This document shows, piece after piece, positions 25,181 through 28,031 of a stretch of DNA of 64,000 nucleotides. The translations under genes were made by a program, and so were the position numbers. Within the stretch, counting starts at the first letter, position 1. Each line of letters begins with the position of its first letter. Location of the stretch: positions 32,001 through 96,000 of the forward strand of contig CAVSGP010000004.1 in assembly GCA_963727505.1 (NCBI GenBank), in the 5' to 3' direction. A model generated the notes under the pieces. That model searched no databases, was not told the origin of the DNA, and was given only the letters and a program-made list of their open reading frames with translations. This DNA comes from an uncultured Trueperaceae bacterium. Its GTDB lineage: Bacteria; Deinococcota; Deinococci; Deinococcales; Trueperaceae.

Positions 25181-26476
25181 TCAGGACGATCCGGCCATCG
25201 TACTACCGCTCTCGCCGGGAACGTCCCCGCTCCGGTCGGCGCGCCTCAGACGGGCGATGTAGAAGCCGTCGAGCCCGTCCTCGGGAAGAACGTAGATGCC
25301 GGCGCCTGCCGGCACATGGGAGACGGGGCACGTCACGCTCTCGCTGCGGTAGTCGGCATGCCGCTCCAGGAAGGCCCGGATCTGCACCTCACCCTCCGTG
25401 TCGGTCAGCGAACACACCGCATACACCAGGCGTCCCCCCGGCGCGGTCAACGCGGCGGCGGTGTCGAGCATGGCGCGCTGGCGGGCCGCAGCCCGGTCCA
25501 CGTCCTGCGGGGCGAGCCTCAGCTTGATCTCGGGATGCCCTCGAAGGGTGCCGGTACCGGTGCAGGGCGCGTCGAGCAGCACGGCCTCGGCGGCCGGTTG
25601 CCCGACGGGCTGCGTGAGGTCGGCGGTGAGGTGCTCGGCCTCGAAACCGAGCCGCGCAAGGTTGCTCCTGCGCGCGGCCTCCTTGCGGGGATCGACATCG
25701 ACCGCTGTGACGGCGGCGCCAGCGGCCGCCAGTTGGGCGGTCTTGATGCCGTTACCAGCGGCCAGGTCCAGCACGCGCTCGCCGCGCCGCACCTCCAGCG
25801 CCAGCACCGGAAGCGAGGATGCTGGGTTCTGGGGTTGCACCAGTCCGTCTCGGAAGGCGCGCAGGCGGTCGAGCGGCAGCGGGGCGCGCACCCGCAGGGT
25901 GCCCTCGATGGGTCCCGGACGGACATCGCAGCCGTCGGCCGCCAGGCTCGCCGCGGCGCGCTCGTCGTAGCTCCGAAGCCACATCGGTCCCGGCTCCAAC
26001 ATGGCGCGTGCCGCCCGTTCGGCGGCTTCGGGGCCGACCGCGGCCTCGAAGCGCTCTGCGAGCCAGGCCGGCACGATCCGTCGCAGCTCGTCCGCTCCGC
26101 GCGGCGCCTCCACGCGACGCAACACGGCGTTGGCGAGTCCGGCGAGCTTGGGCTCGTCGGACTTGACCGCTTCCACCCAGGCGTGCACGGCCGCATGTCG
26201 GGGCGTACCCCGGACCAGCAGGTCGTAGGTGCCCAGGCGCAGAGCGGCCCGCGTCCGCTCGGGCAGCCGCTCCGGAGCGCGCAGGCGCGGCGCCAGCGCG
26301 GCGTCGACCCAGTCCAGCCGCCGCAGCGTGCCGTAGCTCAGATCGGTGACGAACGACCGGTCCATGCCCTCCAGGTCGGAGGCGTCGAGGGCGCTGCGCA
26401 GCGTGGGCGCAAGGAAAGCGCCGCGCAGAACGCGGCGCAGGATGTCGATGGCGAGGATGCGGGCCTGGGTGTGCAA
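25181..26476 (-). CDS. rsmB: RsmB/Sun family m5C RNA methyltransferase with NusB-like domain
   Basis: DLAAGNGIKT, LDAPCTGTGTLRGHPE, YAVCS, DGFYIA. Confidence 0.88.
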   Translation of the reverse strand: MHTQARILAIDILRRVLRGAFLAPTLRSALDASDLEGMDRSFVTDLSYGTLRRLDWVDAALAPRLRAPERLPERTRAALRLGTYDLLVRGTPRHAAVHAWVEAVKSDEPKLAGLANAVLRRVEAPRGADELRRIVPAWLAERFEAAVGPEAAERAARAMLEPGPMWLRSYDERAAASLAADGCDVRPGPIEGTLRVRAPLPLDRLRAFRDGLVQPQNPASSLPVLALEVRRGERVLDLAAGNGIKTAQLAAAGAAVTAVDVDPRKEAARRSNLARLGFEAEHLTADLTQPVGQPAAEAVLLDAPCTGTGTLRGHPEIKLRLAPQDVDRAAARQRAMLDTAAALTAPGGRLVYAVCSLTDTEGEVQIRAFLERHADYRSESVTCPVSHVPAGAGIYVLPEDGLDGFYIARLRRADRSGDVPGESGSTMAGSS

Positions 26477-27389: not shown

Positions 27390-27665
27390 TCAGGGCCTGG
27401 CGACCTCCATGGACACCACCGCGAAACGTACCGCCGTGCGTTCCTCGTTCTGAAGCTCGAGCTTGACGAACGACGGCCACGTGCGCAGGTCCAGGCCCTC
27501 CGCCTCGATGTACGAGCGTGCGATCGCGATCGCCTTCACGGCCTGGTTCACAGCATGAGGACCGATCGCTTGGACCTCGACTTCCCCCTCGTTGCGAAGG
27601 AGCGCGGCGATGGCCCCGGCGACCGAGTTGGGTCGCGACGATCCGGAGACGCGTAGGACTTCGAT
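27390..27665 (-). CDS. spoVS: Stage V sporulation protein S family protein, ATC start codon
   Basis: Manual translation (M)EVLRVSGSSRPNSVAGAIAALLRNEGEVEVQAIGPHAVNQAVKAIAIARSY... (91 aa); AGGAGG 6 nt upstream of ATC; absent from the ORF track. Confidence 0.9.
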   Translation of the reverse strand: MEVLRVSGSSRPNSVAGAIAALLRNEGEVEVQAIGPHAVNQAVKAIAIARSYIEAEGLDLRTWPSFVKLELQNEERTAVRFAVVSMEVARP

Positions 27666-27860
27666 GGTGGACCTCCTGGGGTTCCCGTCTCGGTCGAGTC
27701 ACCCCCATCCGGACCTCGATCACAACGGATGGGCTCCCAGTGGCTCGCCCTTCGACGACGTGCGTGACTCCTTCTGTTTCCCTTCCTGGCTCGGTTCGAG
27801 TCCCTCTAGTGTGCGGCATGGGAGGCGCGCCTCGCAAGCGCAAGCGCCACGTCGCCATCC

Positions 27861-27890
27861 TTGACACTCGGGCGGGCCGCTCCGTATACT
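27861..27890 (+). promoter_or_regulatory. Sigma70-type promoter of the ilv-leu operon
   Basis: TTGACA-18 bp-TATACT. Confidence 0.8.
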
Positions 27891-27991: not shown

Positions 27992-28031
27992 GGCCCCGCC
28001 TCCTTCGGAAAGGCGGGGCCTTTTTCGTTTT
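27992..28031 (+). terminator. Intrinsic terminator (attenuator) upstream of ilvB
   Basis: GGCCCCGCCT-loop-AGGCGGGGCC followed by TTTTTCGTTTT. Confidence 0.85.

Follow-up and report, generated by a model that had tools for sequence, protein, structure and literature searches.

The spoVS gene of an uncultured Trueperaceae bacterium is intact and has, after a strong ribosome-binding site, ATC in the position of the start codon. In the window, the whole 64,000-nt stretch of DNA analysed here, the coding sequence lies on the minus strand at 27390..27665 and runs from ATC (27663..27665) to a TGA that ends at 27390, encoding 91 amino acids. The Shine-Dalgarno (SD) sequence AGGAGGT occupies 27671..27677, with AGGAGG at 27677-27672 separated from the ATC at 27665-27663 by the 6-nt spacer TCCACC. 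An in-frame TGA (27699..27701, minus) closes the frame 12 codons upstream, ATG, GTG and TTG are absent from the 11 codons in between, and the first GTG within the gene stands at codon 39 (27549..27551, minus), where a start would cost 38 of the 91 residues (42%). The Pfam family PF04232 covers residues 2-83 (profile positions 1-82 of 83, E 4e-36, 123 bits against a gathering cut-off of 24), and PDB entry 2eh1, the T. thermophilus SpoVS, matches at E 4e-34. A sequence-only reading of this DNA had described the 91-residue SpoVS frame with AGGAGG 6 nt before ATC, the TGA 12 codons upstream with no canonical start between, and an internal GTG whose use would remove about 40% of the protein; sequence and Pfam match bear out all three. 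The gene was found in a single copy in the source genome, and it shows what characterizes infC, an ATH codon at initiation distance from the SD with no usable canonical start.

The start codon was then compared across the family by a pattern search that is blind to C-initial codons and that matched 105 of 128 genomes, leaving 23 without a match. ATC was found in 81, ATA in 8, ATG in 15, GTG in 1 and ATT in none, so that ATC or ATA stands at the spoVS start in 89 of the 105 matched genomes and in 29 of 31 genera; these counts include the unpublished ATC genome G219, without which they become 88/104 genomes and 28/30 genera, and they are drawn from kin and are not independent events. In the initial sample, spoVS was present in 33 of 37 family genomes (ATC 27, ATA 4, ATG 1, GTG 1); a GGAGG-like core precedes the first codon by 6-7 nt at 31 of the 33 loci, and at 13 of the 31 ATH loci the frame contains no upstream canonical codon at all. 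ATG fills the genera g41 (10 genomes) and g2 (4 genomes), occurs in one g10 genome, and is not seen in 28 of 31 genera. Identity to the window is 92% over residues 2-38, as against 46% at fourfold-degenerate sites (27 loci), which places these residues under purifying selection; the internal GTG is moreover present in only 7 of 28 loci, so the part before the first GTG is translated. The codon class at the start is itself conserved across the clade beyond silent-site conservation (89/105 genomes versus 46% fourfold identity). GAA is the second codon in 87 of the 89 ATH matches, compared with 13% of Glu codons in genome G000, an excess to be expected beside a real start. In a FastTree tree of 30 loci, built from spoVS and its neighbours and rooted on two loci of the sister family f3 with no topology test, ATC is basal in the family, three separate tips carry ATA, and the ATG of g2 falls inside (support 0.94). 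Selection likely keeps the weak start, because ATC/ATA persists across 29 genera. One genome, G013, holds two spoVS copies that start with ATA, together with a divergent homologue that starts with ATG (L044, L057, L059).

That the gene does not start at ATC at all, owing to assembly error, decay to a pseudogene, RNA editing, a start farther upstream or a start at the internal GTG, is extremely improbable. The notion draws on the public gene calls, most of which extend or truncate SpoVS: of 120 database relatives, 70 have Ile at position 1 with an upstream extension, 29 begin with Met there, and a 53-residue form that starts at the internal GTG is present in public collections. The extensions, however, are unrelated among themselves, and one locus (L016) has a stop one codon upstream of the start. 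ATG in place of ATC, proposed earlier as the sign of an assembly error, did not turn up in the contigs of sequencing runs. Nearly identical contigs from the DNA runs of two studies (X1, X2, X4) cover position 27663 with no other letter among the matches listed, the differences of the X1 and X2 contigs being accounted for elsewhere, and the same holds for contigs from RNA libraries (three runs, X18-X20, from two studies), which come from relatives, may include DNA and show the presence of ATC only. Nor do relatives all carry ATG, the other outcome that had been named as fatal, given the 89 of 105 genomes above. Assembly error, pseudogene and editing were rejected on the evidence of the run contigs, the conservation in the family and the purifying selection on residues 2-38. 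The earlier description of the gene as hidden stands insofar as some gene callers miss or misplace it and falls insofar as NCBI records already give Met there: protein NLG09466.1 has Met at the ATC position, and WP_013176723.1 (Truepera radiovictrix SpoVS) begins at the same position. The start is thus already implicit in GenBank, though we found no remark on it in the literature. A literature search that covered largely the main texts of freely available papers returned no paper describing such a start for spoVS or hflX; the supplement of PMC2830850 (Table S5, 49 candidates) could bear on the novelty of both.

Beyond the family, an order-level search of 363 genomes took in the sister families f2-f5. 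The spoVS start is GTG in 21 of 21 cases in f3, and among 67 cases in f4 it is GTG in 65, TTG in 1 and ATG in 1. The 53 matches from 125 f2 genomes searched comprise GTG 24, TTG 13, ATG 2, ATC 1 and 13 others that are probably extended forms, and f5, which the pattern search missed, has ATG at 6 of 6 loci read. Four of the five families (the Trueperaceae, f2, f3 and f4), with GTG, TTG or ATH dominant, thus avoid ATG at spoVS; of the 38 SD-led GTG starts in G000, by comparison, 13 correspond to ATG in G032, a genome of another genus. Five f2 genomes have GTC at the spoVS start position, but none of the five has GGAG at a distance of 3-12 nt, and GTC is not claimed as a start. Scanning GTDB for SpoVS loci that open on ATH gave at least 118 loci, at least 57 of them of the family type (58 including L138) and at least 61 others. 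All 57 listed family-type loci carry an SD-like motif, and most of the 61 listed non-family matches were set aside as ordinary extensions with an upstream ATG or GTG. One Actinomycetota genome has ATC and no canonical codon in frame, amid relatives whose 28 matches include ATG 21, GTG 4, TTG 1 and one unclear case; one Bacillota genome starts one of its three full spoVS copies with ATA; and a group of Bacilli has ATA in 4 of 24 matches, but there an ATG lies within the SD-like motif, three codons upstream. These weak cases suggest that ATH starts arose repeatedly, and separately in an Actinomycetota genome and in Bacillota; ATG stands at most of the Actinomycetota and Bacillota loci read. An ATT in Ruminococcus was discarded as a singleton (ATG 15 and GTG 1 among the 16 of 18 relative loci parsed). 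At L240 (G086, a relative in the Actinomycetota group), spoVS has no in-frame ATG, GTG or TTG, and a CTG lies 6 nt after AGGAGG.

Which other genes share such starts was examined in a pairwise screen of G000 against 2.4 Mb (74%) of G032, covering 1,130 gene pairs and requiring conserved N-termini. A shared canonical column was recovered for 467 pairs, 159 of them with an SD in both genomes, alongside six ATH/ATH and five CTG/CTG columns with an SD in both. By inspection, the credible shared non-canonical starts are infC ATA, spoVS ATC, hflX ATC and rpsL CTG; the remaining ATH and CTG columns appear to be internal or antisense or have a canonical codon alongside. Earlier, stricter versions had missed infC, hflX or rpsL, so the sensitivity of the screen is limited, and the final version recovered all four. 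Relaxed ATH initiation throughout the genome can be dismissed: SD-led ATC near coding starts in G000 is not enriched (11/1,163 sites, 0.9%, with most codons at 1-2%), and three credible ATH genes emerged from the 1,130 pairs. A tie between spoVS and initiation fidelity gains indirect support from this comparison of genomes, because the other shared non-canonical starts found are those of infC, hflX and rpsL. The four-gene set is small and would need to be read as drawn from 74% of one other genome and from genes with conserved N-termini. A single-genome candidate also appeared outside the window, at G000:C4:969862-970140 on the minus strand, as a 92-codon frame with GGAGGTG, 9 nt and ATA and no nearby canonical start.

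The hflX start (TIGR03156) is ATH at 33 of 33 family loci read, the best 30 comprising ATC 18, ATA 11 and ATT 1, with three more. Elsewhere it is ATA or ATC at 4 of 4 f2 loci, ACG at 3 and ATA at 1 in f5, ATT at 2 and ATG at 2 in f3, and TTG or GTG at 5 of 5 in f4; four of the five families retain a non-canonical hflX start. The hflX gene at L268:1501 (G000:C4:660448, plus strand, outside the window) has ATC behind AAGGAG. At two other loci, L278 and L291, hflX has no SD and instead a TAGACT or TACACT box 5-6 nt before ATC or ATA, an arrangement that could reflect leaderless mRNAs whose first codon is non-canonical; in L291 there is in addition a GTG two codons upstream. The start of infC is ATA in G000, and an apparent GTA occupies the position where other families have ATA at 6 of 6 f5 loci (L183, L194, L197, L199, L201, L202).

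We favour, with a probability of roughly 0.6, the reading that the weak ATC is selected and leaves SpoVS capped and exposed to IF3, its level rising with those of IF3 (infC) and HflX when IF3 proofreading slackens or proofreading 30S subunits are short. On this model the 30S subunit would be held over the ATC by SD pairing and loaded more readily because of the A-rich second codon, and IF3 would determine what share of the ATC complexes goes forward, such that SpoVS would normally be scarce and would rise together with IF3 and the ribosome-splitting GTPase HflX. Initiation on the ATC by fMet-tRNA is close to certain in our judgement, output is presumably below that from ATG, and IF3 would reject the ATC complexes by analogy with infC. 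According to PMC5499595, IF3 accepts AUG, GUG and UUG as canonical and rejects other codons, giving infC autoregulation, and in S. aureus the starts AUU and AUA yield roughly 10% of the output from AUG (PMC13009471). Against a role for IF3, AUA was in vitro an equal competitor to AUG and was cut by only 20-25% by excess IF3 (PMC5499595, with AUC not among the codons tested). Against it, too, stand the ATG starts of g41, g2, one g10 genome, f5 and most Bacillota and Actinomycetota loci read, so a weak start is not needed everywhere. A feedback loop through the neighbouring rsmB gene is not supported by PMC3643588, in which RsmB loss had no effect on initiation from most codons, so this neighbour gives no direct loop.

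Two further explanations share the premise that ATC is the start. The selected ATC might do no more than limit the dose of a nucleic-acid-binding protein made from a strong promoter and ribosome-binding site, its sensitivity to IF3 being incidental; we regard this as rather unlikely. The graded series of GTG, TTG and ATC/ATA across families fits tuning of a level, GTG and TTG are among the codons that IF3 accepts as canonical (PMC5499595), and the AUU of S. aureus cvfC1 lowered output with no medium-dependent effect (PMC13009471), but a simple cap leaves aside that the other three genes with such starts are all translation genes and that in four of the five families the hflX start is non-canonical too. 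Improbable to a greater degree is a nearly neutral origin, in which the strong SD and A-rich context let ATC initiate well enough for it to persist by drift and codon bias. Although ATG has replaced ATC in at least three family lineages and AUA can equal AUG in vitro (PMC5499595), ATG is one substitution away and yet missing from 28 of 31 genera with silent sites near saturation, ATT occurs in 0 of the 89 ATH matches, and SD-led ATC shows no genome-wide enrichment. Selection for a start that is both weak and exposed to IF3 remains our preferred explanation.

Upstream of spoVS, a putative promoter (TTGCG, 18 nt, CACACT; 27808..27837, minus) is suggested by TTGC and ATGCCGCACACT, which are invariant in 10 of 10 genus members, and would imply a leader of about 135 nt in the source genus; a consensus promoter scan did not pick it. 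A second SD-like motif, AGGAG followed by conserved ACG/GTC bases (27745-27775, minus), precedes the spoVS start by about 105 nt; all 10 genus members keep it, and no canonical start follows it. A riboswitch or structured cis-regulatory leader was considered and rejected: the covariation term across 10 genus members was -0.05 kcal/mol with no conserved covarying structure, Rfam gave no leader match at gathering score (only iscRS, E 0.15, 18.8 bits versus 40, inside the gene), and on visual inspection the leaders of different genera do not look alike. A near-consensus promoter (TTGACA-18-TATACT, 27861-27890, plus), placed back to back with that of spoVS, faces ilvB and is followed by a terminator-like hairpin at 28003-28018; together, these elements may form an attenuator region.

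To our knowledge, conserved non-canonical starts have been recognized in just a handful of bacterial genes. In infC, the best-studied case, the non-canonical start marks a regulatory loop. The infC start (AUU, AUC or AUA; PMC5499595, PMC2830850) resembles that of spoVS in placing ATH at fixed spacing behind a strong SD and in its conservation across a clade. The two differ in that IF3 acts on initiation, whereas SpoVS is known for no such action and the feedback loop is that of infC, and in that the spoVS ATH is largely confined to one family, its sister families using GTG, TTG or ATG. For Deinococcus-Thermus, infC ATA and rpsL CTG have been described (PMC2830850), and Baudet et al. (PMC2830850) reported dnaA ATC, rpsL CTG and Deide_03051 CTG in Deinococcus, in the same phylum and, for dnaA, with the same codon as spoVS. 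The rpsL CTG is common to G000 and G032 as well, whereas the parallel with dnaA drawn in the sequence-only reading fails here, both genomes having ATG at the matching dnaA position. In S. aureus, ccpN (AUA) and cvfC1 (AUU) combine, like spoVS, a conserved non-canonical start and a strong SD with a small or regulatory protein; their starts were shown by Ribo-Ret and reporters, while that of spoVS is predicted from sequence (PMC13009471). The main text of PMC2830850 mentions neither spoVS nor Truepera, and that of PMC13009471 does not mention spoVS.

The window protein is a full-length member of the SpoVS family PF04232 with a matching modelled fold (PDB 2eh1, 2ek0; PMC2732212, PMC11621453), and its start sets it apart from members read outside the order, which mostly begin with ATG. 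A single-sequence model (pLDDT 71) matched 2eh1 at Z 8.5 (rmsd 2.5, 72 aligned) and Alba proteins more weakly (Z about 5.3; Alba 1nh9, Z 5.3), in keeping with the Alba-like fold assigned earlier. A fold search returned SpoVS- and Alba-type matches; IF3-C was not among the best 50 listed, which excludes nothing. An NCBIfam search gave no family for SpoVS. We know of no molecular function assigned to SpoVS since 1995. PMC11621453 places SpoVS in the Alba superfamily and reports that IF3-C has a topology in common with it yet no similarity at the profile level, and DNA binding has been proposed (PMC2732212). The literature consulted casts SpoVS as a DNA-binding regulator and is silent on start codons, with nothing in PMC8510167 on the identity of the spoVS start.

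Two genes lie downstream of spoVS in most loci of the order. One encodes a putative neutral zinc metallopeptidase (PF04298; 26507..27259, minus, in the window) and has this place in members of all five families; the other encodes an rsmB-type 16S rRNA methyltransferase with a NusB domain (25181..26476, minus) and abuts the spoVS stop in three f4 loci. Across 57 loci of Actinomycetota and Bacillota, the neighbours include RNase Y (6), YmdB (5), a radical-SAM UPF0004 enzyme (18) that we take to be of the MiaB type, and seryl-tRNA synthetase (4), with a PHP protein (23) and a HATPase protein (21) also recurring. We tentatively suggest, while thinking it on balance doubtful, that infC, hflX, rpsL and spoVS form a minimal start-codon regulon that reads the status of IF3 and free 30S subunits, and that SpoVS is an RNA-binding factor of the ribosome or RNA metabolism and not a DNA-binding sporulation regulator. 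Such a reading would fit the neighbours, with rsmB in the order and RNase Y, YmdB, the MiaB-type enzyme and seryl-tRNA synthetase in other phyla.

Gene callers limited to ATG, GTG and TTG give SpoVS a wrong N-terminus in most family members or a 42% cut. The spoVS and hflX genes add two further conserved non-canonical starts, each kept across the family or most of the order, and the company that SpoVS keeps, with IF3, HflX and S12, is a directly testable lead towards a role in RNA or ribosome biology.
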